From Minisyncoccota bacterium (lineage in GTDB: Bacteria > Patescibacteriota > Minisyncoccia > Phycocordibacterales > UBA2100), in contig JAYWCB010000005.1 in assembly GCA_043780835.1 (NCBI GenBank), forward strand, positions 125,945 through 189,944: a stretch of 64,000 nucleotides of DNA, given 5' to 3'. Of the stretch, positions 3,981-39,755 are shown in pieces. How positions within the stretch are numbered: position 1 is the first letter of the stretch; each line of letters begins with the position of its first letter. A model generated the notes under the pieces. The model saw only the letters and a list, made by a program, of their open reading frames with translations. It was not told the DNA's origin and did no database searches. The translations under genes and the position numbers were made by a program.

Positions 3981-4091
3981 CCATCAATGATAATTGGCGT
4001 GGGTAAGTTTAATATGAAGCATTTCAACATGGGCAGACAGCGAAATGGAATTCATGCGCCTGAAAAGTTCCCAAAGCTGATCAGAATAAAA

Positions 4092-6049: not shown

Positions 6050-6063
6050 ATTTTAGATAGGCT

Positions 6064-6495: not shown

Positions 6496-6563
6496 TTTCT
6501 CTTAACGAAAGACCCTCAATGAAGTTGAGCGGTTTTCTATTTATAAGGTCAAGAGAAATTAAC

Positions 6564-7082: not shown

Positions 7083-7128
7083 ATGTGCGATGCGTGATTA
7101 TTAAATTAGAAGTTAAGATGAAATAACT

Positions 7129-7848
7129 ATGGAGACTGAATCGCAACAAAATAAATTACTCATTCCTGGCGCGATAGTCATTGCTGGATTTTTAATCGCT
7201 GGAGGACTTCTCATTGGACTTCGTGGAAACAGTTCGGCGCAAGTCGGTGCGACGCCTCCAACCGGCCAACAACCAACACAGGCGGCGGATGTTAGCAAGG
7301 TCAAGATCGCTGGTGAACCATATATTGGAAAGGAGGACGCTCCAGTCACGATGGCGTACTGGTTCGATTACCAGTGTCCGTTCTGTCAGCGCAACGAGAT
7401 TGATGTCATGCCGCAGCTCGTTAAAGAATACGTGGACACCGGCAAGGTTAAGATTGTATTCAAAGATTTCGAATTTTTAAGCGAGGATTCGCAACGACTT
7501 GGCAAAGTAGCGCGTGCTGTCTGGGATACTGCTCCGGATAAATTCTATCAATGGCACAAGGCTGTCTTTGAGAATCAGGGTAAGGAAAATACAGGCTGGG
7601 CAACAGACGCGAAGATCCTCTCAATTACGACGAGCGTACTTGGCGCAGCAGATGCGCAAAAAGTAATGGCACTGGCGATTAAGAATTCAGATGCGTATCA
7701 AAAAGAGATGGACGATGACAAAGCCGAAGGAGGGGCAATGGGCGTAAGCGGTACGCCAGGCACGATCATTGGTAAACAGTTTATCAATGGAGCTCAGCCA
7801 TACGCAGCATTTAAGCAAGTCATTGATCTTACCCTTGCGGGAAAGTGA
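7129..7848 (+). CDS. DsbA/BdbD-like thiol:disulfide oxidoreductase, membrane anchored
   Basis: N-terminal TM; thioredoxin-fold active site YWFDYQCPFCQRNE (CPFC); C-terminal GVSGTPGTIIG. Confidence 0.7.
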   Translation: METESQQNKLLIPGAIVIAGFLIAGGLLIGLRGNSSAQVGATPPTGQQPTQAADVSKVKIAGEPYIGKEDAPVTMAYWFDYQCPFCQRNEIDVMPQLVKEYVDTGKVKIVFKDFEFLSEDSQRLGKVARAVWDTAPDKFYQWHKAVFENQGKENTGWATDAKILSITTSVLGAADAQKVMALAIKNSDAYQKEMDDDKAEGGAMGVSGTPGTIIGKQFINGAQPYAAFKQVIDLTLAGK

Positions 7849-8384
7849 TTATGATTGCGAGCGCGTTCACGACAGTATTCAAAAAGTGGCAGTATGTGTT
7901 ACTTGCCGCTGCTGTGGCGCTGTTTATGACTGTGTTTGCAACATGGCTGCCGAATCTGCGACTCCTATTGTCGATTCTTGGAAATCCCGCAGTAGCTCTC
8001 GCCGACAAATTAACTTTGCCGGTTAATCTTGCCACGTCGATCACGACAAACTTCACGGTCCGTGCCGCTCTCTACATCATTGCGAGCGCCGTGCTCGCTG
8101 GTATCAATGTCTCGCTCATTACGTACTACATTAATAGACAGAGACGTGTATCAGGAGCTGGCGCGGCAGCGGGTGGGCTCGGACTCATAAGTGGAGTCCT
8201 TGGAGTCGGATGCGCTGCATGTGGCTCGCTGGTAGTCATGTCCGTATTCGGCACAGCGGCGGGTGCAAGCATCATCACCTTTTTACCGCTCAAAGGTGAA
8301 GAATTCGGAATCGCTGGAGTAACGCTGCTTGGTATTTCGGCGTACATTTCGGCGAAACAAATAACGAAGCCCCTTGTGTGCTAG
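7845..8384 (+). CDS. polytopic membrane protein with intramembrane CAAC motif, translationally coupled to dsbA-like gene
   Basis: ATGA overlap with upstream stop; ~5 TM; GVLGVGCAACGSLVVM; no DsbB/VKOR signatures. Confidence 0.5.
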   Translation: MIMIASAFTTVFKKWQYVLLAAAVALFMTVFATWLPNLRLLLSILGNPAVALADKLTLPVNLATSITTNFTVRAALYIIASAVLAGINVSLITYYINRQRRVSGAGAAAGGLGLISGVLGVGCAACGSLVVMSVFGTAAGASIITFLPLKGEEFGIAGVTLLGISAYISAKQITKPLVC

Positions 8385-8524
8385 TCACAACATTGTCCTA
8401 CCTTTCCATACCCTAAGGGATGACACTAGATGCCCTAGGGCGTCAAGAGCGTCCTGAGTAGCCAAGGTGTTGGTAACTAAAATGTGCCGAAAAGCACTGA
8501 AAGCGGGTTGGATAAATGAGTAGC

Positions 8525-8569
8525 AAACGACGGCCACATTTGGTAAGTGGCCGTCGTTTTATTTTTCTT
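8525..8569 (+). terminator. rho-independent terminator
   Basis: AAACGACGGCCAC..GTGGCCGTCGTTT stem then TATTTTTCTT. Confidence 0.5.
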
Positions 8570-8667
8570 AATAATTCCAATATATAGATCCAATATACTT
8601 AGCTCGACTTCTTAAATACTTGTTGTAATCTTCTATCTAGAAGCAACCATTTTAGAGAGGTCTAAAC

Positions 8668-9426
8668 ATGCGTGGGCAAGCACTGCCAACCGAAGTCGTT
8701 TCGCTACTTCGATCCTCGGAAAGGCTTGAGAAACTTACCGGGGTTAGAAAAGCAGGCCAACTTATGGCCTTCTGCAATTCACTTCAGGAATCTGCCGCGC
8801 TGAAAATGTTTAGCAGTACAGATTGGTTTCAGATCAATACGCTTCCGGAGCGTATTTACGAATTGCTATTCTCTAGTGATCATGACGTTGCACGCGAAGC
8901 CGCATTTGTTTTGGTGGCAAACGCAACGAAATACTCGAACTGTTATCAGAACAGTAAGTGTTTTTTTGAATTGTCGCAGACAGAGCGCTCTGTCTTTGCC
9001 ACTCAGCTCCTTGAGCTTGTGGAAGATTTTGGGCTCGAATATGTAGTCCAAGGCGAGTTACATTATGACGGAGAAACTGAGGAGGATTACAAGATCAAGG
9101 GAACGTTTTGCTTCATGGATAGGCTGCACTTTAAAATTGACGATCTGCCACTTATCTTAAAAGAGCAGAAAGTATTCGATAACCACCTAAGTGTGGGAGT
9201 GCCTCCCGGTTCGGCTGGATGTGTAATTTCTCACGCAAGAATTGAACTGACCGCTCAAGACATCAAGGGCGGAGTCGTGGCCAAAGGTACTGCTAATCTG
9301 TCGACCTCAAAAGAGGATTGGCGAAACTATAACAGTCGGACCTTTCCTGTGGTTTTATACTTCAACAGGTCGGTGGACTGCATTGAACTCCCAATCATAG
9401 GCTTGCCTGAATTGGTAAAAACTTAG
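8668..9426 (+). CDS. hypothetical protein (252 aa)
   Basis: ORF with upstream promoter-like motif shared with 10113..10547. Confidence 0.45.
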   Translation: MRGQALPTEVVSLLRSSERLEKLTGVRKAGQLMAFCNSLQESAALKMFSSTDWFQINTLPERIYELLFSSDHDVAREAAFVLVANATKYSNCYQNSKCFFELSQTERSVFATQLLELVEDFGLEYVVQGELHYDGETEEDYKIKGTFCFMDRLHFKIDDLPLILKEQKVFDNHLSVGVPPGSAGCVISHARIELTAQDIKGGVVAKGTANLSTSKEDWRNYNSRTFPVVLYFNRSVDCIELPIIGLPELVKT

Positions 9427-10547: not shown

Positions 10548-10552
10548 ATTTA

Positions 10553-10582
10553 GGCCCGCGTTAAGCGGGCCTTTTCCTTTCT
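10553..10582 (+). terminator. rho-independent terminator
   Basis: GGCCCGC-gttaa-GCGGGCC then TTTTCCTTTC. Confidence 0.55.
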
Positions 10583-11063: not shown

Positions 11064-11496
11064 AATCCATATCTGCTGACAGCAGTACCGAAACAAAATC
11101 ACTCTTATTGAGTGATTTTGCTTTCGTTCCGTAACGTCATCAGCCTTGCGTGTATGGTTACGCAACAAGACCTGGGTGATTCACGATTGTCTCAACGGGG
11201 CAACCTTGTTTCGGATCAGTCTTGCCAATGCAAATTGCAACATTGGTGCTGATTGTTTTTCTCGCGTTACTTACTCGTTTTACATCCGCAGGAACATGAG
11301 CCATCAGCCTGTGTGTGTTCGTGATTGCAGCTTGAACAAGTACCAGATTTTGTATCCATAGTAGTTTAATTAGGTTGATATAAGCACTTCACATAGTGTC
11401 ATGCCCGTAATGTGATTTACATGAGGAATACTCAGGCACGCGCGGAAGGATTAAATCCCATTTTCCTATCCTCATCGACGTTCATGTGTATCACAT

Positions 11497-11513
11497 ACCC
11501 CTAGGGGGTATAC
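11497..11513. promoter_or_regulatory. CsoR-type operator (perfect palindrome ATACCCCTAGGGGGTAT)
   Basis: 17-bp perfect inverted repeat ~8 bp upstream of csoR start; matches the GC-rich CsoR box type (ATACCC.A.GGGGGTAT) of Bacillus copZA operators; overlaps a TATACT -10-like hexamer. Confidence 0.6.
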
Positions 11514-11520
11514 TGTGTGA

Positions 11521-11793
11521 GTGAGAGCAGATATTAAGCGCAAAACTATACGAAGGCTGAAGTTGATTGAAGGACAGGTGCGTGGCCTTCAGCGTATGGT
11601 TGAAGACGAAAAGTATTGCGTCGACATCATTATCCAAGCCTCTGCCATCAAGGAAGCGCTTTCCGGTGTCAAAGATCTGGTACTGGAGAATCATCTTTCT
11701 ACTCACGTCATCGAGCAGATTAAGGCCGGCAAAGAAAAGAAATCTGTAGACGAGATCCTTAAGATCTATAAGTTGGCGCAAAAGAAAAGATAA
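11521..11793 (+). CDS. csoR: CsoR/RcnR/FrmR-family copper-sensing transcriptional repressor
   Basis: RLKLIEGQVRGLQRMVEDEKYCVDIIIQ..H..C pattern typical of CsoR; GTG start. Confidence 0.75.
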   Translation: MRADIKRKTIRRLKLIEGQVRGLQRMVEDEKYCVDIIIQASAIKEALSGVKDLVLENHLSTHVIEQIKAGKEKKSVDEILKIYKLAQKKR

Positions 11794-11797
11794 ATCT

Positions 11798-13930
11798 ATG
11801 GATCACTCACATCACAACCATGGCGAGCATCATACAGATTCGACTGGAGAATCGTATAGCTGCCCCATGCACCCGGGAGTTGTGCAAGACAAACCAGGTA
11901 TGTGCCCCGAGTGCGGCATGAATCTTGTGCCTATAAAAAAGAAGTCGGCTGCGGAAATGAGTGAAATTAAGCACGTTGGTCACAACACCTTTTCATTTTT
12001 GCAGAAGTTCTGGATTTCACTTGCGCTCACCATACCCATCTTCTTTTACTCAGAAATGGCGCTATCGGTCTTTGGAATTCACGGACCTGAGTTCCCCGGA
12101 TGGCAGTACGTACTACTCTTGCTCGGATCAGCTGTATTTTTTTACTGTGGATGGATCTTTCTTAGTAGTGCATACCGTGAGCTTCGGGCACGGATGCCGG
12201 GAATGATGACGCTGATCGCACTTGCGATCATTGCGGCATATCTGTATAGCTTCTTCTCTATCATCCTTGGAACGGGTCACGATTTGCTTTTTGAACTCTC
12301 AACACTGATAGCCATTATGCTTCTTGGCCACTGGATCGAGATGCGCTCGGTGCAAGGTGCCAAAGGAGCTCTTAAAGAACTAGCTAAACTTCTCCCCGAT
12401 ACCGCAGACGTAATCCGCAACGGTAAAACCGAAACTGTCTCACTGAGCGACCTGCGTGCAGGCGATAAAGTGCTCGTTAAACCGGGTGCAAAAATTCCGG
12501 CTGACGGACGAATTGTTGAAGGACAGTCAGAAATAAACGAGGCAATTATCACCGGAGAATCGAAACCTGTTTCTAGAACGACGGGAGCACAAGTTATAGC
12601 TGGCTCTATTAATGGAGACGGAAGCCTCACGGTTGAAGTAACACATATTGGCGACAAGACTTTTCTGGCAGGAATCATGCGACTTGTCGCTGATGCCGAA
12701 GCGTCTAAATCCAAATTGCAGATGCTCTCGGATCGAGCAGCGTTTTATCTCACCATTATTGCGATTGTCGCAGGAGTCACAACATTTATTGCATGGCTCT
12801 TGGCAAACGCAGGCGTAGGAACTGCTACAGAGCGTCTTGTCGCTGTTCTCGTCATTACGTGTCCTCACGCCCTGGGTCTAGCAATTCCGCTCGTTGCGTC
12901 GATCTCTACGACCATGGCTGCACGAAATGGACTCTTAGTGCGCCGCCGCATGGCTCTGGAAGAAGCCCGAAATATTAATACGGTTTTATTTGATAAGACA
13001 GGCACCCTGACTAAGGGAGAATTTGGCATAGACGCGATTGTTGCAAACGAAGGTGTTACGGAGGAGCAAGTCCTCAAAACGGCCGCCTCAGTCAATAGTC
13101 AATCAGAACATCCATTGGCTAGTGCAATGGTCAAAGAGGCGCAAAAAAGAAACATCGCTTTGATTGGTATAAAAGACTTTGCACGTATTGGAGGCCGCGG
13201 CGCAAAGGCGCAGATGGAAAATAGCGAAGTGTATGTTGGCAACGAATCTTTTCTTGCAGAAAATAATATACAAGTACCATCAGAGTATCAAAACAAAATA
13301 GATATCCTCTCAAAACAAGGAAAAACGGTGATATTTGTTGTCGTTGATAAAAAACTCATCGGTAGCATCGCGCTTGCCGACGTTATTCGAGAAGAGTCAC
13401 GAGAAGCAATTAAAACCCTTAAGGCTCTTGGTATTCGTACCGCTATGGTTACGGGCGATTCCGAAGATGTTGCCGCGTGGGTAGCCAAGGAAATAGGTAT
13501 TGATGAATATTTTGCAAAAGTCATGCCTGACCAAAAGGCAGAAAAAGTAAAACTTCTGCAAAGCAAAGGCCAAAAAGTAGCTATGGTCGGCGACGGGGTG
13601 AATGATGCGCCCGCGCTTACGCAAGCAGACCTTGGTATAGCAATCGGTGCAGGTACAAATGTTGCGATTGAGTCAGCGGGAATTATCCTCGTAAAAAGTG
13701 ATCCTCGCGATATCACGAAAATCTTTAACCTATCGCGCCTTACCTACAACAAGATGATCCAAAATCTTTTCTGGGCTACAGGCTACAACGTCGTGGCGAT
13801 TCCCTTGGCTGCCGGAACGCTCGCGTCGTACGGAATCATTCTGCAACCCGCACTTGCTGCCGTGTTTATGTCAGTAAGTACCGTGATAGTTGCATTCAAC
13901 GCAGTGCTATTGAGACGACAAAAAATCTAG
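11798..13930 (+). CDS. copB: copper-translocating P1B-type ATPase, CPH (CopB/P1B-3-like) subtype with His-rich and CxxC N-terminus
   Basis: N-terminus MDHSHHNHGEHH + YSCPMHPGV..CPECGM; TM CPH motif (ITCPHALGLA); DKTGTLT, TGD, GDGVNDAP motifs. Confidence 0.85.
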   Translation: MDHSHHNHGEHHTDSTGESYSCPMHPGVVQDKPGMCPECGMNLVPIKKKSAAEMSEIKHVGHNTFSFLQKFWISLALTIPIFFYSEMALSVFGIHGPEFPGWQYVLLLLGSAVFFYCGWIFLSSAYRELRARMPGMMTLIALAIIAAYLYSFFSIILGTGHDLLFELSTLIAIMLLGHWIEMRSVQGAKGALKELAKLLPDTADVIRNGKTETVSLSDLRAGDKVLVKPGAKIPADGRIVEGQSEINEAIITGESKPVSRTTGAQVIAGSINGDGSLTVEVTHIGDKTFLAGIMRLVADAEASKSKLQMLSDRAAFYLTIIAIVAGVTTFIAWLLANAGVGTATERLVAVLVITCPHALGLAIPLVASISTTMAARNGLLVRRRMALEEARNINTVLFDKTGTLTKGEFGIDAIVANEGVTEEQVLKTAASVNSQSEHPLASAMVKEAQKRNIALIGIKDFARIGGRGAKAQMENSEVYVGNESFLAENNIQVPSEYQNKIDILSKQGKTVIFVVVDKKLIGSIALADVIREESREAIKTLKALGIRTAMVTGDSEDVAAWVAKEIGIDEYFAKVMPDQKAEKVKLLQSKGQKVAMVGDGVNDAPALTQADLGIAIGAGTNVAIESAGIILVKSDPRDITKIFNLSRLTYNKMIQNLFWATGYNVVAIPLAAGTLASYGIILQPALAAVFMSVSTVIVAFNAVLLRRQKI

Positions 13931-13963
13931 TATGGCAAATTACTCGCAAAGAATTCTTAAAAT

Positions 13964-16543
13964 ATGAATACCGAAAAACTTACAGAACGCTCGCGAGAGG
14001 CACTAGAGAGAGCGCTTGATATCGCACACAGCGCGCGGCATTCGAGCATTGAACCGATGCATCTCCTTGCCGCTCTTCTTGAGCAGAACGATACGGTGGT
14101 TCGCCCTCTTATTGAAAGTCTGAAAATTGATGTTGAGGGACTCCGCGATACGGTAGCAGCAGCACTTAGTCACTTGCCCATTCTCCAACACGACACGTCG
14201 CCGAGGCTCTCGCCCGAATTACAGCAGGTGCTAGAAAAAAGCGTTACAGAAGCTGGGGCACTTTCGGACAGCTATGTAAGCACCGAACATCTGCTCCTTG
14301 CAATTCTCGACGTTGCAAGCAATACAAAGGTGATTTTGAACGAACTTGGTGCGCGATACGCAGATATTAAGAGCAATCTTCCGAAAGTCCGCGGCGCGGG
14401 CAACGTACATGATCCAAATCCTGAAACAAAATATAATGTATTAAAAAAATACGGACAGGATTTTACAGAACTCGCTCGTCAGGGAAAACTCGATCCAGTC
14501 ATCGGGCGAGATGACGAGATCCGTCGCGTGATGCAGGTGCTTTCACGCCGCCGCAAGAACAATCCGGTCCTTATCGGAGAACCCGGCGTTGGTAAGACGG
14601 CAATTGTCGAGGGGCTGGCGCAACGGATAGTTTCGGGAGACGTACCTGATTCGCTCAAGAATAAGCAGCTACTTGGCCTTGAGATCGCATCGCTGCTTGC
14701 TGGCGCAAAGTTTCGTGGAGAGTTTGAGGAGCGTCTACAGGCGGTGCTCAAGGAGGTGGAGAAAGCGGAAGGAAGCATCATCTTGTTTGTCGACGAATTG
14801 CACACGATTGTTGGCGCTGGAAAAGCGGACGGCGCGGTCGATGCAGCAAACATGCTCAAGCCACTTCTTGCACGCGGGAAACTTCATATGATCGGCGCAA
14901 CAACCTTGAACGAATATCGCCAATACATCGAAAAAGACCAGGCGCTTGAGCGAAGGTTCCAGCCAGTATTCGTCGGGGAGCCGTCTATAGAAGACACTAT
15001 CGCAATATTGCGGGGTCTCAAGGAGAAATACGAAGTGCATCACGGCGTAAAGATTACGGACGAGGCCCTCGTAGCCGCCGCACGGCTCTCTGAGCGGTAC
15101 ATCACCGAGCGATTCCTGCCGGACAAAGCGGTAGATCTTATAGACGAAGCAACGTCAACGCTTAAGATGGAAATTGAGACCATGCCTATTGATCTTGATG
15201 CGATGCATCGCAAGATCTTGAAGTTTCAGATAGAAAAGGAGGCGCTCAAGAAGGAAAAGGGCGCCGAGAGCAAAAGCCGACTCCAAGAGGTCGAAAAAGG
15301 CATCGCGTCACTCAAAGAAGAATTCGACGGGAAAAAGGTTCGATGGGAAAAGCAGCGGGAGCTTGTAAGGAAACTTCGAGCACTTTCAAAAGACATCGAC
15401 GAGTTACGAATACAAATGGAGCGGGCGGAACGCTCCGGCGATCTCTCCCGCGCGGCCGAGATCCAATACGCTACGCTTCCCGAAAAGCAGAAGGCGATCA
15501 AGAATGTAGAGAAAGAAATTAGCGCTATTCCGGAAGCAGAGCGCTTGGTCCGCGAAGAAGTAACCGAAGAAGATATTGCTCGCATGGTGGCACGCTGGAC
15601 AGGGATACCTGTTTCGAAACTTTTAGAAACCGAATCGCACAAATTGGCTCACCTCGAGGAAGAGCTCTCGAAGCGCGTGGTGGGACAGGAAAAAGCGCTG
15701 TCCGCAGTGGCGCGCGCGATCCGTCGCGCACGAGCTGGCCTCAAATCGAAAGGTCACCCTATCGGCTCATTCCTATTTCTCGGCCCTACGGGCGTGGGAA
15801 AGACTGAATTATCACGAGCGCTCGCGGAAATTCTTTTTGATAACGAAGACGCGGTCGTTCGGATAGACATGAGTGAATATATGGAACGTCACTCTGTGTC
15901 CCGGCTCATCGGAGCTCCGCCCGGGTATGTCGGATATGAAGAAGGAGGTCAGCTTACCGAGCCGATACGACGACGTCCCTATGCGGTCATACTTATCGAT
16001 GAAATTGAAAAGGCACATCCCGATGTCTTCAACGTCCTCTTGCAGGTATTGGATGCGGGCAGACTCACCGATGGTCAGGGTCGTACCGTCAATTTCACAA
16101 ACACGCTTATTATCATGACCTCCAATCTGGGAAGCGAGTTGCTGCTCGAAGAGAAAAACGGAAAAGACGTTGAACGCGATGTAATGGCCATTGTCCGAAA
16201 AAATTTCAGACCGGAGTTCTTAAATCGCATCGATGAGATCGTTTTCTTCAACGCTCTCGACAAAGCGGTACTGAAAGAAATCGTCACACTTCAAGTCAGC
16301 GAGCTTCTCCGGCTGCTTCTGGAAGAAAAGAGAATCATCCTTGATGCAGATAGCTCCGTGTACGACCTGTTACTCAAAAAAGGATACGACCCGGCATTTG
16401 GGGCTCGTCCGCTCAAGCGAGCCATACAAACGGAACTCATGGACACGCTTGCTATGGCGATCATTGATGGTTCTATCGCCGAAGGTGATCGGGTCAAGGC
16501 GACGGTGGATAAGGGGGGTGAAATTATCTTCAAGAAAAAATAA
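13964..16543 (+). CDS. clpB: ATP-dependent chaperone ClpB
   Basis: 859 aa, two AAA+ modules (GEPGVGKT; GPTGVGKT), coiled-coil middle domain, ClpB N-domain. Confidence 0.9.
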
Positions 16544-16545
16544 TA

Positions 16546-16958
16546 TGGATACGTTTCTAACCCAAAAACAACAGATCGTGGTACGAGGACTTCTTGAAGA
16601 TTCCGGCGAAATTCTGATTACTGTAGACCAAAGATATGCACCATCATATTTAGAGTATTACAACCTACCGGGAGGAGTGGTTCCATTCGGTCGCGAACCT
16701 GCCGAAGTTCTTCAAGATATCTTTTTTGAACAAACGCATGTTCGCGTAAAGGTAGATGCACCGCTGCGCACCATAAACAGGATCCTTGATCGTGGTAGCA
16801 GCCAGATACTTGAGATCATTTACCGTGTGGAGAAACAGGAAATTCAGAGCGTTGCATCGCAAAAGTCGCAATGTCTTTGGGTACAGATTGATGAGAGAGG
16901 ATATTTCTTGTCCAGCTGTATTTCAGAGACGCTCAGTGACTTCAGAAAAGAAAAGTAA
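16546..16958 (+). CDS. NUDIX-fold-like protein with degenerate Nudix box
   Basis: Starts right after clpB stop; LPGGVVPFGREPAEVLQDIFFEQT resembles the Nudix box but lacks REx2EE glutamates; table ORF 16341.. is an over-extended start inside clpB. Confidence 0.4.
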
Positions 16959-16974
16959 GCCGAAATAGTATTCT

Positions 16975-17724
16975 ATGGATCCTTCAATGATAATGACAAA
17001 TACGAATAAAAGCGGTTCGTTTTTGGACACCGCGCTTGTCATTTGGTTTATTCTTACTGCGATCTCGGTGGTCTACGTTGCATGGGATGCGTATCACAAT
17101 AATCCCGAGTTGAAAGTAATGCGTGTTGGATGGATTCTCGTAACCGCATACACAGGAGTCATCGGTGCCGCCTTGTATGTGCTGTCTTGCAAACCGCCTA
17201 AGGTTAGTGAGCACGAGAAATTTATTGCACCTGTATGGAAACAGTCGCTTGGTTCCACAATTCATTGCATGGCAGGAGATGCGACTGGAATCATAGTTGC
17301 GGCAGTCATTACGGTGGCGCTGGGGCTACCAATGTATCTCGATGTAGTCTCAGAGTACTTTTTTGGGTTCGCCTTTGGCCTGCTTATCTTCCAAGCGTTG
17401 TTTATGCAAAAAATGCTTGGTGGCAGTTACGTCGCAGCAGTAAAGAAATCTTTTATGCCCGAATGGCTCTCCATGAATGCAGTCATGGCAGGCATGATAC
17501 CCGTGATGGTTATTCTCATGAGTTCGGACATGAGAGCAATGGAGGCAACGGACATCAGGTTTTGGGGTGTGATGTCTTTGGCGACCTTGGTTGGACTTGT
17601 CATCGCGTACCCCATCAATTGGTGGCTCGTAGCCAATAAGCTAAAGCATGGCATGGGAACAGAAGCAGTGATCGGCAAAGGAGGAGAAAAGCAGAGTGTA
17701 AATCAAAGTGGCATGCAAATGTAA
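16975..17724 (+). CDS. DUF4396-like membrane protein
   Basis: Multi-TM with GSTIHCMAGDATG motif; sits in copper gene array. Confidence 0.45.
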   Translation: MDPSMIMTNTNKSGSFLDTALVIWFILTAISVVYVAWDAYHNNPELKVMRVGWILVTAYTGVIGAALYVLSCKPPKVSEHEKFIAPVWKQSLGSTIHCMAGDATGIIVAAVITVALGLPMYLDVVSEYFFGFAFGLLIFQALFMQKMLGGSYVAAVKKSFMPEWLSMNAVMAGMIPVMVILMSSDMRAMEATDIRFWGVMSLATLVGLVIAYPINWWLVANKLKHGMGTEAVIGKGGEKQSVNQSGMQM

Positions 17725-17753
17725 CTTATAAATTAATAAATATAGATAAGAAT

Positions 17754-17981
17754 ATGAAAAAAAACGAAACAATGAACTCGCTAGCAAGCAAAACTGAAGC
17801 TGCATTCGACAAGGCTTTTATCGTGGCAATGACGGCGCACCACAACGAAGCAATTGCAATGGCTAAAATTGCGGAGAAGAAAAGTAAACGCAAGGAAATA
17901 CTAAAACTTGCAAAAAATATTATTACAGCTCAGTCGAAGGAAAATGCACAAATGAAAGTATGGAAATCTGAGTGGAAATAG
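17754..17981 (+). CDS. DUF305-like small protein (paralog of 2312..2536)
   Basis: FDKAFIVAMTAHHNEAIAMA...MKVWKSEWK; immediately upstream of multicopper oxidase. Confidence 0.55.
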   Translation: MKKNETMNSLASKTEAAFDKAFIVAMTAHHNEAIAMAKIAEKKSKRKEILKLAKNIITAQSKENAQMKVWKSEWK

Positions 17982-17991
17982 TCTGCTAAAG

Positions 17992-19677
17992 ATGGCGAGA
18001 AAAATGAAACGTAATATGAAAAACAAAGCAATGAAAATGAAAAAAGGAAATGTGACGAGGGCGCAGCTCATGGCGGTGACGGTGCTATCTCTCGCAGCGC
18101 TCACTATCGGCGTATTCATCTCTGGAATCTTTGGCAACTTCTCCATGCGTCCAGGTGACATGAGCGGCACTCAACGGGGTCCTTTTTCGCAATCTACTAC
18201 AGGTCTTAGAGAGGCAACCTCTTCTGAAGTGGTTGAGCTAAAAAATGGCTACACCTACAGTCTCACCGCATCTATCGTGAAAAAAGTAATCGGTGAGACA
18301 GCAGTAAAAATGCTCGCATATAACGGCATGATCCCGGGACCGCTGCTAAAGATTCCTCAAGGTGCGGAAATTACGGTGAATTTCAAAAACGAGACTGATG
18401 TTCCAACCACACTTCACTCTCACGGTATCCGCTTGGAAAATGCCAATGATGGTACGCCTCCGATAACGCAAAAGGAGGTACCGCCAGGCGGCTCTTTTAC
18501 GTACAAGATCAAATTCCCCGATGCTGGGATGTACTGGTACCATCCGCATGTACGCGAAGATTATGCACAAGAACTCGGCCTCTACGGAAATTATTTAGTG
18601 ACGCCGGCGAGCCCGAACTATTGGAATCCTGTCAATCGCGAAATGCCCCTCATTCTTGATGATATTTTAATTGAAAATGGTGCAATTGCCGCTTTCGATA
18701 GAAAAACAGCAGATCGCACGCTTATGGGCCGGTATGGAAATACCTTTCTAATCAATGGCGACGATCGCTACAGTCTGCAAGCAAAAACAGGAGAAGTGAT
18801 CCGCTTTTATGTCACGAACACTGCTAATGCCAGGCCATTTAACTTCGCTATATCGGGAGCAAAAATAAAACTCGTCGGAAGCGATAGTGGTGCATATGAA
18901 AAAGACCAGTGGATCGACGCCGTAACGCTGGGACCATCAGAGCGTGCCGTAGTAGAAGTACTATTCGATAAAGCTGGAACATATGCGATTCAAAACAAGA
19001 CACCGGATATAACGAATCAACTTGGCACCGTGATTGTCTCAGGAAGTCCGATCACCCCATCGTATGCACGCTCCTTTGCAACCCTTGCGACTCACATAGA
19101 TGTTGTTAAAAGCATCGACCACTTCCGAGCGGATTTCAGCAAACTGCCGGACAAGCAACTCAAGCTAACTGTGGACTTAAAGGGCGCTATGTCGAGCATG
19201 ATGAACAGCGGAAACAGCATGGCCGGGATGGATATGAGTGGAGGCTCGATGGCGATGGGGGCGCCAAAAGACGGCATCGAATGGGACGACACGAGCGGAG
19301 GTATGGGACAGATGAATCAGATGTCGAATGCAGATACCGTTGCGTGGAAAATAGTTGATACGGGAACTGGTAAGGAAAATATGAACATCGATTGGAACTT
19401 TAAAGTCGGTGACAAAGTAAAAATACGAATCACGAATGACCCGAACTCACCGCATCCGATGCAACACCCCATACACTTCCATGGCCAACGATTTTTGGTA
19501 CTTGATCGCAATGGTGTCGAACAAACGGATCTCGTATGGAAAGACACGGTACTTGTTCCTTCAGGTCAGTATGTCGATATTCTCCTTGATGCGTCCAACC
19601 CTGGCACATGGATGGCGCACTGTCACATCGCAGAGCACCTTGAGGCGGGCATGATGTTTAGCTTTACGGTCAAATAA
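17992..19677 (+). CDS. multicopper oxidase (CueO/laccase-like) with Met-rich segment
   Basis: HSHGIRL, WYHPH, HPIHFHG, HCHIAEHLEAGMM copper-site motifs; Met-rich MSSMMNSGNSMAGMDMSGGSMAMG insert; N-terminal signal/TM. Confidence 0.85.
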   Translation: MARKMKRNMKNKAMKMKKGNVTRAQLMAVTVLSLAALTIGVFISGIFGNFSMRPGDMSGTQRGPFSQSTTGLREATSSEVVELKNGYTYSLTASIVKKVIGETAVKMLAYNGMIPGPLLKIPQGAEITVNFKNETDVPTTLHSHGIRLENANDGTPPITQKEVPPGGSFTYKIKFPDAGMYWYHPHVREDYAQELGLYGNYLVTPASPNYWNPVNREMPLILDDILIENGAIAAFDRKTADRTLMGRYGNTFLINGDDRYSLQAKTGEVIRFYVTNTANARPFNFAISGAKIKLVGSDSGAYEKDQWIDAVTLGPSERAVVEVLFDKAGTYAIQNKTPDITNQLGTVIVSGSPITPSYARSFATLATHIDVVKSIDHFRADFSKLPDKQLKLTVDLKGAMSSMMNSGNSMAGMDMSGGSMAMGAPKDGIEWDDTSGGMGQMNQMSNADTVAWKIVDTGTGKENMNIDWNFKVGDKVKIRITNDPNSPHPMQHPIHFHGQRFLVLDRNGVEQTDLVWKDTVLVPSGQYVDILLDASNPGTWMAHCHIAEHLEAGMMFSFTVK

Positions 19678-19680
19678 TGT

Positions 19681-20328
19681 ATGTGTTTCTCTGCGACAGC
19701 AAGTTTCGTAGCTGGAGGGGCGCTCAGTGCGGCGGGAGTTTTGACGATTGCGCAGGTGAAGAAGAAATCCGAACTACCCTTTGCCAGTATTCCGCTTTTG
19801 TTCGGAATCCAGCAGGCTATTGAAGGAGTGGTGTGGGTTTCTTTTGGTTCCCCAATTTTGAATGCCATAGCCACGTACGGATTCTCTTTGTTTTCACATG
19901 TCCTCTGGCCGATACTTATTCCTGTTTCGGTTTTGTTGATGGAGACAGATGAGACTCGTCGGAAAATTCTGTGGGGCTTTTCAGGCATCGGCATCGCTGT
20001 CGGATTATATCTTCTGTATTTCATCGTCACCGAGCCGATTACATCGCAGATTGTAAATAACAGCATCGCGTATAATTCTCCTCATCTTTTCTTGTATCCG
20101 ATGCTTGCACTGTATCTGGCGGCTACATGTGTCAGCTGTTTCTTTTCCAGCCATAGATTTATAAAAGTATTCGGAGTTTTCGCACTCATATCTGCGTTTA
20201 TTGCAGCATGGTTTTTTAGTGAGACATTTCTATCCGTGTGGTGCTTCTTCGCAGCAATTCTGAGCGTACTAGTCTTCTGGCACATCAAAAGAAAATCTGT
20301 TGCCGTAAGGTTAATCAAAACAGGTTAG
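19681..20328 (+). CDS. hypothetical polytopic membrane protein
   Basis: Starts 4 nt after MCO stop; 6 predicted TM. Confidence 0.4.
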   Translation: MCFSATASFVAGGALSAAGVLTIAQVKKKSELPFASIPLLFGIQQAIEGVVWVSFGSPILNAIATYGFSLFSHVLWPILIPVSVLLMETDETRRKILWGFSGIGIAVGLYLLYFIVTEPITSQIVNNSIAYNSPHLFLYPMLALYLAATCVSCFFSSHRFIKVFGVFALISAFIAAWFFSETFLSVWCFFAAILSVLVFWHIKRKSVAVRLIKTG

Positions 20329-20362
20329 TTATCAGTTCATTTAATAAATAAAAGTAAAAATT

Positions 20363-20584
20363 ATGAAACTATCAAAAGTAATGCACGTAGTTAGTGTTGT
20401 TGTGGGGGTTGTTGGAGTAGGTATGTTTGTTGGTGCAATTCGGATCGGGTCGAACAAAATGGTATATGGGATCACAAAGATGAACGCACTTGCGTGCGTT
20501 GCCATCCTCATTCTAATCGCTACGTGGCTTCAGATTGCGACGATCCATCACATGATGCTTGAGAAGAAAGGAGAGATTGTCTAG
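20363..20584 (+). CDS. small hypothetical membrane protein (73 aa)
   Basis: Two hydrophobic helices; weak. Confidence 0.3.
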   Translation: MKLSKVMHVVSVVVGVVGVGMFVGAIRIGSNKMVYGITKMNALACVAILILIATWLQIATIHHMMLEKKGEIV

Positions 20585-20595
20585 AATTTGTACCC

Positions 20596-20961
20596 ATGGA
20601 CATCGGCAATTTGCTCAAGCTAGCGATTCCTCTTTTTGTCGCCCATGCGATAGAAGAGTATAGTACCGGCCTTCTTGGCCTCGACCCTCTCTTCCGTTCC
20701 ATAACCGCGCACCATTTGCCCACAATTACTCTATACATTGTCGAACAGTTACTATTGGTAGCAATTTTGCTGTGGACAATTTATCAACCGAAGCGATGGC
20801 TTCTGGTTTTTATCGGACTACTCTTTATTTTCGAAGTGAGTCATGTCATTCCTGCGTTAGCCCAAACGTCGTATTACCCAGGGCTTGTAACAGCGATACT
20901 ATTGCTTCTTTTGGGACTTTTTTATTGGAGGGCCGTAATGATACGATTTACCAGGAGGTAA
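20596..20961 (+). CDS. HXXEE-domain membrane protein
   Basis: VAHAIEEY (H-x-x-E-E) motif in first helix, 4 TM. Confidence 0.55.
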   Translation: MDIGNLLKLAIPLFVAHAIEEYSTGLLGLDPLFRSITAHHLPTITLYIVEQLLLVAILLWTIYQPKRWLLVFIGLLFIFEVSHVIPALAQTSYYPGLVTAILLLLLGLFYWRAVMIRFTRR

Positions 20962-20998
20962 GGTAATCTTGTCTTGCGCTTCTTAATACATACAAACC

Positions 20999-21517
20999 AT
21001 GAATACAAAAGTCATTATTGGTCTCGCGGCGGTCGTTCTTATTACGGGTGGTGCGTACTATTTTTCAACGACAAAAACGGGCGACTCTTCGGGCATGAAT
21101 ATGACACCCGAGCAGAGGGCGGCCATGCATCATTCTTCCGGTAATGCTTCCAATACATCGCCGATGCTCGCTGAGCCGAATGCTGTCGTAGTGACTGATC
21201 AGCGACCAGGTAAGGTGGTAACAGGCACCGTGTATCTTGCAGCTCCCGGATATCTCGTTATCCACGACGAGTCAGGCACCGTGCTTGGATCAAGTGCACT
21301 TCTCCCCGCAGGACAAAGTAATAACGTCAAAGTAGTGCTCTCACGTGCAAGCAAAAACGACGAGAAGCTCATGGCCATGCTGCACTCAGATACAGACGGC
21401 AACGGTTCGTTCGACGCATCGAAGGATGTGCCCGTCCAGAGCAAGCTTGGCGGAGCCATTCAGGGCTCTTTCCAGGTGTCATCAAGAGCGGGCGCAAACA
21501 CCCCGGTGAGCATCTAA
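20999..21517 (+). CDS. membrane-anchored periplasmic hypothetical protein with Met/His motif
   Basis: N-terminal TM, MTPEQRAAMHHSSG; beta-rich remainder. Confidence 0.4.
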   Translation: MNTKVIIGLAAVVLITGGAYYFSTTKTGDSSGMNMTPEQRAAMHHSSGNASNTSPMLAEPNAVVVTDQRPGKVVTGTVYLAAPGYLVIHDESGTVLGSSALLPAGQSNNVKVVLSRASKNDEKLMAMLHSDTDGNGSFDASKDVPVQSKLGGAIQGSFQVSSRAGANTPVSI

Positions 21518-21566
21518 CTTCTGGCGAAACACTGCTAAATATTCCATCTTAATTTTAGAACTTGAT

Positions 21567-22292
21567 ATGGTCATCCTCATTGCAATTGCTGCATTCTGTT
21601 CAACACTTTTGGGAGGCTGGTTTGCGCTTCGCCTCAAAGATCGTTTACATCTCATTCTTGGATTCAGTGCGGGAGCTGTGATAGGCGTCGCTTTCTTCGA
21701 CCTTATACCGGAAGCGATTGATCTTGTGGGAAAAAGCAATGGAACGGCATTCGCCACTTCCATTATCGCTTTTGGTTTTGCCCTATATCTGGCGCTCGAC
21801 AGACTCTTTGTTTTGCATCGACATCACGAAGACGACACGCACGAGCACGCACACTCCGAGCGCGGTGTATGGGGTGCGAGTACGCTTTCACTGCATAGTT
21901 TTCTTGATGGAGTTGGTATCGGTCTTGCTTTCAAAATTTCTCCTGCGATCGGTCTCGTCGTTGCTGCGGCTGTTTTAGCACATGATTTCTCCGACGGCAT
22001 CAATACGGTAAATATGATTCTGAAGAATGGTGGCAAACGAAGACGTGCTTTGCGCTGGCTTATTATTGATGCTCTTGCCCCCGTAGCAGGTGTTCTCATC
22101 ACCCTTCTGTTTTCTGTTACAGAAGGAAGTCTGGGCATTCTTATCGCGCTTTTCTCTGGTTTCTTTCTGTATATAGGAGCAAGCGATCTTCTACCAGAAA
22201 GCCACCATGCACATCCTAAGCGCTGGACGACCATCTCAACAATTGCTGGCATGGGATTTATCTACACCATCATTAAATTAGCCGGAGCCTGA
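21567..22292 (+). CDS. zupT: ZIP-family metal (Zn/Fe) transporter (ZupT-like)
   Basis: HEDDTHEHAHSE His-rich loop, HSFLDGVGIG and HDFSDGINT signature helices. Confidence 0.8.
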   Translation: MVILIAIAAFCSTLLGGWFALRLKDRLHLILGFSAGAVIGVAFFDLIPEAIDLVGKSNGTAFATSIIAFGFALYLALDRLFVLHRHHEDDTHEHAHSERGVWGASTLSLHSFLDGVGIGLAFKISPAIGLVVAAAVLAHDFSDGINTVNMILKNGGKRRRALRWLIIDALAPVAGVLITLLFSVTEGSLGILIALFSGFFLYIGASDLLPESHHAHPKRWTTISTIAGMGFIYTIIKLAGA

Positions 22293-22317
22293 TACGTATA
22301 TCTCCTGATACGTCTAC

Positions 22318-23454
22318 CTAATGACGATGGGACGAGTGCCCGCTGCTCGAGGGTTTTGAATTGCCTGAAAGCATATATGTCGCGATCAGCGTTGTGATTG
22401 GAACGCCGAGGACAAGTCCGATCGAACCGATAAGAATACGCACGATCTCGGTTGCGAAGATCTCGTTATTGATCGCATAGCCGACACCGTACGTCGCGTG
22501 TTGTACGAGGAGCAACAAAGGCAGTGCTGCTCCTACATACGCAATGGCAAGTGTATTCACGAGAGCGCCAATGTGTTCTCGACCGATTCGAATTGCGCGT
22601 TCATATACCTGAATACGAGTCATGTGCACACCAGCTCTGAATAATTCTTCTACCGCTATCGCTTGTCCGATCGCGATATCGTACAAAACACCCAGAAGGC
22701 CGATCATGATCCCGCCATAGAGAAGACCGACGAGATCTATTGAACCGTTCGTGCTAAAGGTGAGATATCGCGATTCTTCGTTGTTATATCCGGTCAACTG
22801 CGCCGCATGCACTACGTAATAAGCACCAAGACCTGTTATCAATACGGTACCAATCATGCCCAAAACGGCGGCTGTTGTGGTGCGGTTAAAACCGTGCGTA
22901 ATATATGAACCGGCAACGATAATAAGAGATGAGACGCCAATACTTACAAAGATTGGCGAATAACCGTGGAGCATACCTGGTAGGAGTACGTAGAAAATCA
23001 AAATAAGACTTCCACACAAACTCGCGAATCCTCGGATGCCCTGAGTGCCACCAAAAATGATTATGAGGACAAGGAACGCGGCGGCAAGCCCCCAGAGCAC
23101 ATTGAGTCGGTACGGATCGGATACCGAGTAGTAATCCACTGGATCCACAGAGCTCGTTGTATGGCGAAGATAAAATATATTTCCTACAGACATTTGAATG
23201 TATTCGTTATCGAATGTGACGACCGATCCAGCATCAGGTCCATCAAGAACTTTTACCCTGAGAGTTTGCATCTTCGTAGACTTGTCTGTTCCCAGAAGGG
23301 CCGTTTCCTTTTGATTCGTCACTTCAAGCACCTGTGCCTTTTGAATTGTTACCGTGTCCTGTACAAGTTCCGACTGAGCGTATGCAAAAATGGGACTCAA
23401 TAATTGAAGCGCCAAAATGAGGAATGTAATATTTTTCGCCACTTTCATAACCAC
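22318..23454 (-). CDS. YibE/F-family-like membrane protein
   Basis: Signal peptide + ~120-aa extracytoplasmic domain + 6-7 TM; family call from memory. Confidence 0.45.
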   Translation of the reverse strand: MVMKVAKNITFLILALQLLSPIFAYAQSELVQDTVTIQKAQVLEVTNQKETALLGTDKSTKMQTLRVKVLDGPDAGSVVTFDNEYIQMSVGNIFYLRHTTSSVDPVDYYSVSDPYRLNVLWGLAAAFLVLIIIFGGTQGIRGFASLCGSLILIFYVLLPGMLHGYSPIFVSIGVSSLIIVAGSYITHGFNRTTTAAVLGMIGTVLITGLGAYYVVHAAQLTGYNNEESRYLTFSTNGSIDLVGLLYGGIMIGLLGVLYDIAIGQAIAVEELFRAGVHMTRIQVYERAIRIGREHIGALVNTLAIAYVGAALPLLLLVQHATYGVGYAINNEIFATEIVRILIGSIGLVLGVPITTLIATYMLSGNSKPSSSGHSSHRH

Positions 23455-24445: not shown

Positions 24446-24634
24446 ATGGCAATTCTCTCAAAACAAAGCGCTACAGAACTTCGCCGTATCATCAAGGAGG
24501 CTACAGGTCGCAACATTTCAGTCGGCGAAGCGTATGCCATCTGGCACTATCTTCTGAAACTACTACAGTTACTGTGGAGGATAGAAAAGAGACAAAAAAT
24601 CCAACCGCAATCAGATCAGTTGAGTCTTTTCTAG
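24446..24634 (+). CDS. small hypothetical ORF (62 aa) at edge of phage-derived segment
   Basis: ORF only; contains the ATAGAAAAGAG repeat. Confidence 0.2.
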   Translation: MAILSKQSATELRRIIKEATGRNISVGEAYAIWHYLLKLLQLLWRIEKRQKIQPQSDQLSLF

Positions 24635-26178
24635 AAAATACCAGGAATTCTCGAACGAACAGTAATTTCTGTATCGGGATCAATAATGTCATCCGGAAAC
24701 CGTCTCGGTGTACCGTACGATGTTGGACCACGCCAGGTGTCGCTACTACTGTATCCCATGAATTTTGTAAGATGAATGACGAGCATGGTGAGAGCGTCAC
24801 AGAGATCATCGTGATTCTCTAACCCAAAATTGACGGCTTGGTTAATGATCTCTTCGCATCCTCGATGGAATACTATCTGCCCATTTTGAATCAGTGCACC
24901 AATGCTCATAAGGCGCTGCTCCTTGCTTCCGTATATGTTGGGATAGAACTCAGATACCGGATAGCCTTGGTGATTGAGGTCTTGGAAGATATATACCTGC
25001 GCCTGCACTGCCTCTACAACGATTTGAGTTCTCAGGCCAGCAGCTCCCTTAGTCGATATTTCTTTTATCTTTTTAATAATATCTCCGAAGTCGAGTCGGT
25101 CGTTATAGTAGATGGGCGAGATATAAATCTTCGCCTTGTTGCCTGACCCATAGAGATGGCCATGCACGATCGCAGTAGGGTCAGTGCCTTCTTTGTTCTT
25201 CGTACCCGGATCAACGGCAGTCACAGACATCCGGTATCGGAGAACGGGATCATTTTTATCAGGGAGAACGTCGTAGTACGTAATCCAGTCGCGTTTGATG
25301 ATCTGGTCATCATCAGCGATCACTTGCAGCAGGTACTCGCGGAACCACGTCTTGTCATTACCAATGCGCTTACGTTCGGCTTCAATTTCTGCCATCGTCG
25401 GAAATTTACCTGGCCACATACTCTCGCCGTTGCGACCTATAAGCACATACTCTCGGTAGATGCCTGTAGTCATACCGTCGCCGATCTCTTGCTTGAGTCG
25501 CATGACAAGACAGTGTTCGTGTAAGACGTTCCCAATCACGATGAATCGTGTGCGTTTCGATCCGAGCGGCATAACCTCGCCTTTGAACCAGTTATATATC
25601 TTCTCTCGACCTTCTTTCGTACGTGCCGACTGAAGGTCCTCGGGGTCATCGATAATCACGAGATCTGGGCGATGTTGGAGATGCTTGATGCCTCGAATAG
25701 CCTCACTGACAGAGGCTACTGAGATACGTGCTCCAAGCTTAGTGAAGACTATGGTGGATGCGCCCCATGTGTCTGTTTCCTCCCGAAATGGCCCCAGCGT
25801 GCGCCGCAGAACCTCATTGTGCTCAAGAGCACCACGCAGGTTCATCATGTGCTGTTTTGCCTGGCTCTGGGTTTGAGCGACTATGAGCACGAACTTCTTT
25901 TGCTGGATACCCAAGATCGCCCACAGCACATACGAGAGTGTAAGCAGTGTACTTTTCGCACTGCCACGAAATGCGACAAGGCACAGTAGATTCCAGTCCG
26001 TCCGCTCGGTAAGTGCAAATATCTCATACTGGAACGGAGCTGTTTCGTACTCGACGTATTCTGCAAAGAAGATGTTGAAAAACCATAGGTGAGATCGTCG
26101 AGTCACGTAGCTTCGCACGAGTTTGTTCTTGCAGATCATTTCAAGAACGTCCTGCCGGAGTGTTTTATTGCTTTTCAT
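24631..26178 (-). CDS. phage terminase large subunit (Terminase_6-like ATPase + RNaseH-like nuclease)
   Basis: Deviant Walker A AFRGSAKST, Walker B LVIIDDPED, C-terminal nuclease Asp cluster (AVDPGTKNKEGTDPTAIV). Confidence 0.75.
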   Translation of the reverse strand: MKSNKTLRQDVLEMICKNKLVRSYVTRRSHLWFFNIFFAEYVEYETAPFQYEIFALTERTDWNLLCLVAFRGSAKSTLLTLSYVLWAILGIQQKKFVLIVAQTQSQAKQHMMNLRGALEHNEVLRRTLGPFREETDTWGASTIVFTKLGARISVASVSEAIRGIKHLQHRPDLVIIDDPEDLQSARTKEGREKIYNWFKGEVMPLGSKRTRFIVIGNVLHEHCLVMRLKQEIGDGMTTGIYREYVLIGRNGESMWPGKFPTMAEIEAERKRIGNDKTWFREYLLQVIADDDQIIKRDWITYYDVLPDKNDPVLRYRMSVTAVDPGTKNKEGTDPTAIVHGHLYGSGNKAKIYISPIYYNDRLDFGDIIKKIKEISTKGAAGLRTQIVVEAVQAQVYIFQDLNHQGYPVSEFYPNIYGSKEQRLMSIGALIQNGQIVFHRGCEEIINQAVNFGLENHDDLCDALTMLVIHLTKFMGYSSSDTWRGPTSYGTPRRFPDDIIDPDTEITVRSRIPGIF

Positions 26179-26614: not shown

Positions 26615-26615
26615 A

Positions 26616-39585: not shown

Positions 39586-39755
39586 CGTCTCTGTATGCCG
39601 TATGAAATTAATAATGAGAACAAGATTTTTTCAGTTTTGATATTCATAGGTGAAATGATTCGACGCATACAATGCCGTTTCGTGTGAACGGGCATAGTGT
39701 AAAGAGAATACCACGCGGTCGAGCGCTCGCCGTGTGGATAATTGTAAAGTCAGCT

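Follow-up and report, generated by a model that had tools for sequence, protein, structure and literature searches.

A predicted copper-sensing csoR-copB cassette directly upstream of a lineage-resident clpB-nudL pair in a metal-stress gene array of a candidate phyla radiation chromosome

Introduction

Gram-positive copper operons under CsoR control (B. subtilis csoR-copZA, the C. glutamicum regulon and M. tuberculosis cso) place csoR directly before the gene of a P1B-type copper ATPase. An inverted-repeat operator with GC tracts overlaps their promoter in an autoregulatory layout. The Cu(I) fingerprint of the repressor is C-H-C, which corresponds to Cys36/His61/Cys65 in M. tuberculosis numbering. 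Here we describe a locus with the same gene order, operator type and layout, in which the copper genes are followed by clpB, the gene of the ClpB disaggregase. The locus lies in a 64,000-nucleotide (nt) stretch of contig JAYWCB010000005.1 (assembly GCA_043780835.1; positions 125,945 to 189,944, forward strand), hereafter the window, which is assigned to an uncultivated, ultra-small bacterium of the candidate phyla radiation (CPR). The literature found does not place clpB in any CsoR regulon, and the terms used returned no paper on copper clusters in CPR.

A first-pass annotation of the window had proposed a co-directional copper array in which the disaggregase is co-transcribed with the copper-resistance genes. 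The metal-stress array is real and operon-like, and all of its parts come from known families. Comparison with other genomes indicates that it is probably a mosaic of three juxtaposed modules, namely csoR-copB (module A), clpB-nudL (module B) and a set of membrane and extracytoplasmic copper-handling genes (module C), rather than a dedicated copper-controlled clpB operon.

Results

Organization of the array

Twelve open reading frames (ORFs) occupy positions 11521-22292 of the plus strand, and all genes named by the first-pass annotation are present on this strand between 11495 and 22292. Most identities were assigned by profile searches against Pfam and NCBIfam (with equivalog cutoffs), which upheld the names given before. 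The gaps from csoR to the ZIP gene measure, in order, 4, 33, 1, 16, 29, 10, 3, 34, 11, 37 and 49 nt. All 11 gaps are 50 nt or shorter, whereas among the remaining co-directional pairs of the window this holds for 17 of 42 (Fisher p = 2.8e-4). The earlier range of 3-50 nt therefore holds at its upper bound (49 nt at most) and fails at its lower bound (1 nt between clpB and nudL). The features of modules A and B are as follows.

11495..11511, no strand: CsoR operator, 7-3-7 inverted repeat ATACCCC-TAG-GGGGTAT
11521..11793, plus strand: csoR, 90-residue CsoR/RcnR-family repressor (PF02583)
11798..13930, plus strand: copB, P1B-type copper ATPase (HMBD, E1-E2 and HAD domains; TIGR01511)
11280..13930, plus strand: module A, predicted mobile csoR-copB cassette, extent set by homology to loci L172/L173
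13931..13963, plus strand: copB-clpB junction of 33 nt, examined by folding and sequence inspection
13964..16543, plus strand: clpB, ClpB disaggregase of CPR lineage type (TIGR03346)
16545..16958, plus strand: nudL, 137-residue protein of predicted Nudix fold (family profile; Nudix structures matched)

Linkage of clpB to copper genes in other genomes

Linkage was examined from both sides of the copB-clpB junction. For copB, the best 80 CopB loci in GTDB representative genomes were compared (CopB 59-78% identical). For clpB, the comparison covered seven distinct relatives (L001, L002, L004, L006, L167, L168 and L169; ClpB 76-81% identical) and two closer relatives on short contigs, L170 (GCA_009712145.1, VFSW01123775.1) and L171 (SRR24974072). 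The background set consisted of 80 generic clpB loci from a metagenome scan with ClpB, which saturated on universal motifs and yielded no ClpB closer than these (52-58% identical).

The join of copper sensor and clpB was seen in no other genome compared. clpB was found within 10 kb of copB in none of the 80 CPR CopB loci, and copB directly upstream of clpB in none of the seven ClpB relatives. The two genes are not adjacent in either of the two closest CopB contigs (L172 and L173). No copper genes were found at the 80 generic clpB loci, none of which has copB directly upstream. A conserved copB-clpB neighbourhood was thus not observed.

Locus L169 (65-3397; ClpB 77%) carries a csoR-(198-residue gene)-DUF302-copB set 4-7 kb upstream of clpB on the opposite strand. 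Its csoR and copB are only 41% and 62% identical to the window genes and belong to an unrelated set, which suggests that copper genes landed near clpB more than once. This layout resembles a neighbourhood prone to rearrangement more than it does an operon.

Downstream of clpB, the gene order is shared with the closest relatives. L170 contains clpB (partial, ClpB 89% identical), nudL (68%), DUF4396 (75.5%) and the N-terminus of a multicopper oxidase (MCO; 51%), while L171 contains clpB (87.5%), nudL (77%) and DUF4396 (78%). The gaps in these contigs are 1-22 nt, and their nucleotide identity to window positions 15122-17690 is 76-77%. The neighbourhood clpB-nudL-DUF4396-MCO is therefore conserved in full in L170 and up to DUF4396 in L171; it is absent in the relatives with ClpB of 76-81% identity. 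The clpB-nudL-DUF4396(-MCO) linkage is thus older than the split of at least three genomes. With L170 running on into the MCO, this sub-clade has conserved a linkage between the disaggregase and one or more bona fide copper genes.

The csoR-copB cassette

The operator ATACCCCTAGGGGGTAT is a perfect 7-3-7 inverted repeat of 17 bp that ends 9 nt before the GTG start of csoR. The perfect CsoR-type operator reported earlier is thus confirmed, with its start at 11495 rather than 11497. It is the sole copy in the 64 kb, where approximately 0.02 chance matches are expected at three or fewer mismatches. A search for additional CsoR boxes, which the first-pass annotation had proposed, found none within three mismatches in the window. 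The sequence TACCCGTCGCGGGTA at 43730 was considered as a second box and rejected; it is a loose match within an ORF, far from metal genes. The right arm of the operator overlaps a -10-like TATACT (11509-11514), 6 nt before the csoR GTG. A box of the form ATACCCC-N3-GGGGTAT is located upstream of csoR in 21 of 22 CPR loci with CsoR at least 54% identical. The distance from box start to csoR start in these 21 loci is 26-39 nt, but 87 nt in two of them. At the sequence level, this conservation is a strong phylogenetic footprint. The window box is also identical in form to the C. glutamicum CsoR consensus ATACCCCnnnGGGGTAT quoted in PMC5057107. Loci L010 (3771) and L017 (3283) carry a second CsoR box before a different two-gene unit, in the same promoter/operator arrangement as in the window: TTGCCT or TTGCGC, 17 nt containing the box, and TATAAT or TATACT.

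The csoR product scores 89.7 bits against PF02583 (cutoff 22.8) and matches the structures 4M1P, 4ADZ, 3AAI and 2HH7. Its GC-tract inverted repeat lies at its own promoter with a copper efflux gene downstream, as expected for a CsoR. The predicted ligand set is C33-H58-H62 (C-H-H), without an N-terminal His. It thus departs from the C-H-C fingerprint at the third ligand, which is a Thermus-like His. In PDB alignments, the third-ligand region reads LENHLSTHV in the window, LERHANHCV in Geobacillus and LRAHLKDHV in Thermus (3AAI). The C-H-H set occurs in 28 of 32 CPR CsoR homologues. The Thermus C-H-H protein responds to several metals (Sakamoto et al., 2010, as cited in PMC5057107), so strict Cu(I) specificity should not be assumed for the window CsoR.

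CopB scores 583.1 bits against TIGR01511 (cutoff 397). Its N-terminus, MDHSHHNHGEHH, is His-rich and is followed by an HMBD (PF19335, CPMH...CPEC). The transmembrane (TM) motif is ITCPHALG and the phosphorylation motif is FDKTGTLT. P1B-3 ATPases are characterised by a DKTGT motif, a His-rich N-terminus and a CPH at the transmembrane metal site, all of which the window CopB has. The translation bears out the His-rich N-terminus and the CPH motif noted before; of the CxxC..CxxC pair claimed for the N-terminus, one site is a CxxC (CPEC) and the other is a CxxH (CPMH).

All 80 of the best CopB loci are Patescibacteria/CPR assemblies or CPR-like contigs. They represent many CPR classes, and the neighbours of copB vary widely among them. 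Genes near copB include csoR (32 loci), MCO (12), a DsbA-like gene (12), DUF305 (8), DUF6629 (5), ZIP (4) and HXXEE (3). Homologues of the 73-residue ORF, 62-67% identical, are found in four loci (near copB or the MCO). The MCO is often directly after copB, for example in L068, L050 and L075. DUF6629 is directly downstream of copB in L032 and approximately 400-1,200 nt downstream in the other four loci. DUF4396 and DUF7282 were found in none of the 80. The closest CopB matches are 91-94% identical (P0125-P0127, 92-94%). The closest csoR-copB copy with context is that of L172/L173 (CsoR 87%, CopB 91%, nucleotide identity 82%). In blastn, it aligns with 77-82% identity over window positions 11280-11367, 11481-11820 and 11855-13905. 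The protein similarity covers CopB through its final residue and goes no further than the copB stop. In L172, copB is followed by a truncated resolvase and then an IS256-like transposase. From these comparisons, module A is best described as an ordinary, widespread and mobile CPR cassette of operator, csoR and copB.

The clpB-nudL pair

ClpB contains a Clp_N domain, two AAA+ modules and a middle region (Pfam domains), consistent with a disaggregase. It scores 1252.7 bits against TIGR03346 (cutoff 1232.1) and covers model positions 1-848 of 853. A ClpK/ClpG-type island cargo protein was considered and rejected, because the scores of 781.9 and 769.3 bits (NF033606 and NF033607) lie far below the cutoff of 1900. 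The nearest homologues are those of Candidatus Paceibacterota and Kaiserbacteria, with 74-81% identity.

The nudL gene begins 1 nt after the clpB stop, and its frame starts at 16545 rather than 16341. A nudL-type gene of 133-163 residues follows clpB in all ten loci compared (the window, the seven relatives, L170 and L171), separated from it by 1-5 nt or overlapping it by 4 nt. The homologues in the seven relatives share 42-46% identity with nudL. None of the 80 generic bacterial clpB loci has such a gene after clpB. Since the pair is kept in 10/10 loci and ClpB best matches CPR proteins, module B can be assigned as a lineage-resident clpB-nudL pair that encodes the host's own ClpB. The other clpB neighbours in the seven relatives are variable; recurrent ones are an ECF sigma factor, an HtrA-like protease, HSP20 and restriction/defence genes, none of which occurs in the window.

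A profile of the ten nudL sequences matched the Nudix structures 3EES (E = 2.5e-6), 5ZRC, 1JRK and 3HHJ in a PDB profile search. The single window sequence gave no Pfam match, and an hhalign comparison of the nudL profile with the NUDIX protein of the window gave no significant match. An AlphaFold2 model of nudL from a 3-sequence alignment reached a mean confidence (pLDDT) of 32 and was not used for fold assignment. The catalytic Nudix box is GX5EX7REUXEEXGU. In the 3EES alignment, GGKIENGETPEEALARELNEELGI of nudL corresponds to GGVVPFGREPAEVLQDIFFEQTHV; the RE is changed to QD, the EE to EQ, the upstream E to R and the final G to H, so that REx2EE is replaced by QDxxFEQ. The "Nudix-like" label of the first-pass annotation is thus supported for the fold and not for the degenerate catalytic box. 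The conserved pairing suggests that nudL may be a lineage-specific partner or regulator of ClpB.

Transcription signals

No plus-strand terminator-like site was found in any of the 11 gaps of the array, and the larger gaps fold like shuffled sequence (z -1.4 to +0.75). This agrees with the earlier statement that the array lacks internal terminators. Two terminator-like hairpins upstream (10552-10572 and 11094-11120) insulate the array. The copB-clpB junction has a minimum free energy of -6.2 kcal/mol (z = +0.75) and contains neither a hairpin nor a Shine-Dalgarno sequence. Coordinates and folding thus support the observation that clpB starts 33 nt after copB without a hairpin between them.

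In the window, a TAAAAT abuts the clpB ATG, which is too close for it to serve this start. The relatives instead have a -10-like GGTAAAAT 6-8 nt before the ATG. A candidate promoter at 20559-20587 ends 8 nt before the HXXEE ATG and has the same geometry as the csoR promoter. Hexamers of the -10 type stand 6-8 nt before the starts of csoR (11509-11523), HXXEE (20582-20598) and, in the relatives, clpB. These positions suggest leaderless or near-leaderless mRNAs in the source organism.

Copper-handling genes downstream of nudL

Module C and the candidate promoter within it comprise the following features.

16975..17724, plus strand: DUF4396 membrane protein with an HCMAGD motif (PF14342, 131.6 bits)
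17754..17981, plus strand: 75-residue DUF305/CopM-like protein (PF03713)
17992..19677, plus strand: three-domain MCO, membrane-anchored, CueO-like (PF07732, PF00394, PF07731)
19681..20328, plus strand: DUF6629 membrane protein (PF20334)
20363..20584, plus strand: 73-residue protein with two TM segments (translation)
20559..20587, plus strand: candidate internal promoter TTGAGA-17-TAGAAT (10 of 12 consensus positions)
20596..20961, plus strand: HXXEE-family membrane protein (PF13787)
20999..21517, plus strand: N-terminally anchored DUF7282 protein, Met/His-rich linker (PF23951)
21567..22292, plus strand: ZIP-family metal transporter, last gene of the run (PF02535)

The MCO has three cupredoxin domains with the copper-ligand motifs HSHG, WYHPH, HPIHFHG and HCHIAEH, a Met-rich insert and an N-terminal TM anchor. 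Its CueO equivalog score of 168.8 does not reach the cutoff of 525. The DUF305/CopM-like protein scores 60.7 against PF03713 (cutoff 27) over profile positions 81-150 of 151 only; it represents the C-terminal half of the domain and lacks a signal peptide. Its NCBIfam CopM domain score (56.4) is under the cutoff of 90. A second DUF305/CopM-like paralogue of 74 residues lies at 2312-2536; it came to light as a direct repeat of 200 nt that shares 71% identity with 17784-17983. The ZupT equivalog score of the ZIP protein is under its cutoff. In the literature found, DUF4396 turns up once, beside a metal-resistance island (PMC7760498). The next gene after ZIP encodes a YibE/F protein and is convergent to the array.

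Chromosomal surroundings

The right half of the window consists of core genes (pyrF, ftsZ, ftsA, gyrA, pth, an S1-domain protein and tRNA-Leu). The left 33 kb is an accessory patchwork of a terminase/ParB-methylase remnant, thiol-redox genes and metal genes. By these core genes and by the CPR matches of ClpB and CopB, the source is assigned to a Paceibacteria/Kaiserbacteria-like CPR chromosome, neither plasmid nor virus. A plasmid origin was rejected, as megablast of positions 11400-22400 against PLSDB gave no match; a viral or provirus origin of the copper genes was rejected likewise, as CopB and DUF4396 scans of IMG/VR gave no relatives. GC content gave a weak and inconsistent signal of foreign origin, and no credible direct or inverted repeats were found flanking the array as insertion borders.

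A thiol/disulfide gene set precedes the array at 3084-8384. It includes a TrxR-like gene, a Thioredoxin_10 protein, DsbD/CcdA, DUF3105, a DsbA-like gene (7129-7848) and a 179-residue ORF (7845-8384). The DsbA-like gene is near copB in 12 of the 80 CPR loci and the 179-residue ORF in nine. Since these two genes co-occur with copB, the copper-associated neighbourhood probably reaches upstream of the region delimited in the first-pass annotation. Within the thioredoxin-like gene on the opposite strand, a 9-nt unit (GTGCCCACA) stands three times in tandem at 4450-4485.

Three phage-type genes are located at 24631-27890 on the minus strand, 2.3 kb downstream of the array, and no other recognised phage genes are nearby. 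Two of them encode the large (phrog_38, 1e-78) and small subunits of a terminase, and the third a fusion of ParB with a DNA methyltransferase (phrog_498, 1.6e-100). In L007 and L044, too, homologues of each of the three are near copB. A 91-nt stretch between two ORFs (8403-8493) is 78% identical to L172 5738-5825, which is the spacer between the truncated resolvase and the IS256-like transposase beside the closest csoR-copB copy; it may be the remnant of a mobile-element end. An IS200-like Y1 transposase gene (47324-47995, minus strand, GC 0.43) lies amid the core genes. In L004, ftsZ and a thioredoxin-reductase gene are just upstream of clpB (6164-8913). The same two genes in the window (38641-41003) are 22-25 kb downstream of clpB and inverted, which fits either a large rearrangement or an insertion around clpB. 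Runs of ten co-directional genes are also present elsewhere in the window.

Discussion

We consider a mosaic of modules A, B and C the most probable explanation of the array, at somewhat better than an even chance. Module A would be autoregulated and circulate among CPR genomes. A CsoR tetramer with Thermus-type C-H-H ligands would bind the 7-3-7 palindrome, which overlaps the -10 hexamer TATACT of a csoR-copB transcript that is probably leaderless. CsoR would be released by Cu(I) and perhaps by other metals, and CopB would then export copper. Module B would comprise the lineage's own clpB, translationally coupled to the catalytically degenerate nudL. Module C would serve membrane and extracytoplasmic copper handling; it already stands directly after clpB-nudL in the closest relatives. 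A rearrangement would have placed the csoR-copB cassette 33 nt upstream of clpB. Since no terminator lies between the two genes, some read-through into clpB is expected by default. That some of it is copper-inducible is plausible, at roughly even odds, and it could reach nudL and the genes beyond. clpB itself would not belong regularly to the CsoR regulon and is presumably expressed independently of CsoR, and part of the downstream array would have its own promoter or promoters.

Several findings weigh against the mosaic. By eye, no convincing clpB promoter was found in the last 120 nt of copB and the gap, so clpB could depend on upstream transcription. Shine-Dalgarno sequences precede none of the array genes, promoter inference in CPR is weak, and sigma-70-like sites are rarer than in shuffled sequence (10 versus 18.9). 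The contigs of L170 and L171 end inside clpB, and the comparison in these two covers the downstream side of clpB. Support from GC content is weak; clpB has a GC of 0.51 compared with 0.44-0.48 in its neighbours, yet that of nudL is 0.435.

The array could alternatively be one CsoR-gated unit of ~10.8 kb from csoR to ZIP, in which evolution has tied clpB and the Nudix-like gene to the copper response on purpose, so that disaggregase capacity would go up with every rise in copper. The missing terminators and hairpins, the short copB-clpB gap, the uniformly tight spacing and the lack of a clear independent clpB promoter all agree with this arrangement, as does the retention of clpB-nudL-DUF4396-MCO in the sub-clade with gaps of 1-22 nt. 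A rationale is available from E. coli, in which copper-caused protein aggregation is countered by chaperones (PMC9040851); however, ClpB is absent from that paper. The comparative data make such a unit unlikely, as copB-clpB adjacency is missing from all 80 CopB loci, all seven ClpB relatives and the closest csoR-copB copy. The window moreover has a single CsoR box and a strong promoter-like site before HXXEE. ClpB, a general stress protein, is probably the sole disaggregase of a small genome and must answer non-metal stress, and the clpB of relatives sits in a proteostasis context with the ECF sigma factor, HtrA-like protease and HSP20. A related proposal, that ClpB and its catalytically dead Nudix-fold partner were recruited into the metal-stress unit and that copper, through the C-H-H CsoR, raises the disaggregase by read-through along with DUF4396, the CueO-like oxidase and further membrane proteins, is in our view equally doubtful.

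Conversely, the modules might be neutral neighbours without coupling. The clpB promoter would then lie inside the 3' end of copB, transcription from csoR would stop before clpB (through Rho or an unrecognised signal), and the genes would share no function other than lying together in an accessory region prone to rearrangement. The patchwork left of the core genes, the highly variable clpB neighbourhoods of relatives with their restriction-modification and defence genes, and the independent, oppositely oriented copper cluster near clpB in L169 are consistent with this possibility; so are the ten-gene co-directional runs elsewhere in the window and the co-directional gene packing of CPR genomes. 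However, the array gaps are significantly shorter than those of other co-directional pairs, and no terminator-like structure is present at the copB-clpB junction. In addition, three genomes, by now 76-77% identical in nucleotide sequence, have retained clpB-nudL-DUF4396(-MCO), which argues for some constraint on at least the downstream half. We therefore regard a purely neutral arrangement as improbable.

Should the recruitment of ClpB prove true, metal intoxication and disaggregation would be hard-wired to each other, in place of the separate heat-shock regulators of other bacteria, and clpB under CsoR would show how regulator-poor organisms economise on stress control. The comparisons document that a mobile csoR(C-H-H)-copB cassette, its operator strictly conserved, is common to CPR bacteria, that such cassettes land in accessory regions beside core stress genes, and that a CPR clade has a degenerate Nudix protein coupled to ClpB. 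The value lies in the annotation of CPR genomes; to a specialist the findings are not surprising, and the arrangement is a curiosity and no new kind of system.

Compared with the Gram-positive CsoR cop operons, the locus has C-H-H rather than C-H-C ligands, lacks a CopZ chaperone and resides in a CPR host. Its ATPase, a CopB type with a CPH motif and a His-rich/HMBD N-terminus, takes the place of a CPC CopA, and its unit runs into clpB without a terminator. The CsoR of Thermus thermophilus HB8 (3AAI) shares the His in place of the second Cys and regulates a copper ATPase operon (as cited in PMC5057107). It has an additional N-terminal His5 (H-C-H-H), whereas the window protein starts approximately seven residues later (x-C-H-H). 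The CopB-type P1B-3 ATPases of Archaeoglobus fulgidus share the CPH TM motif and the His-rich N-terminus with the window CopB, which has an extra HMBD (PF19335, CPMH...CPEC) after the His-rich stretch. CueO/CopA-type MCOs share the three cupredoxin domains, HxH/HCH motifs and a Met-rich segment; in contrast to these soluble substrates of the twin-arginine translocation (Tat) pathway, the window MCO is anchored by an N-terminal TM helix. The tLST/LHR (ClpK) and ClpG islands likewise place a Clp/Hsp100 ATPase beside stress genes in an accessory region rich in mobile elements. The window protein is instead a canonical ClpB. Because it scores above the TIGR03346 cutoff and far below those of ClpK and ClpG, and because it is a protein of the host lineage with a lineage-specific partner gene, it is a resident disaggregase and no island cargo.

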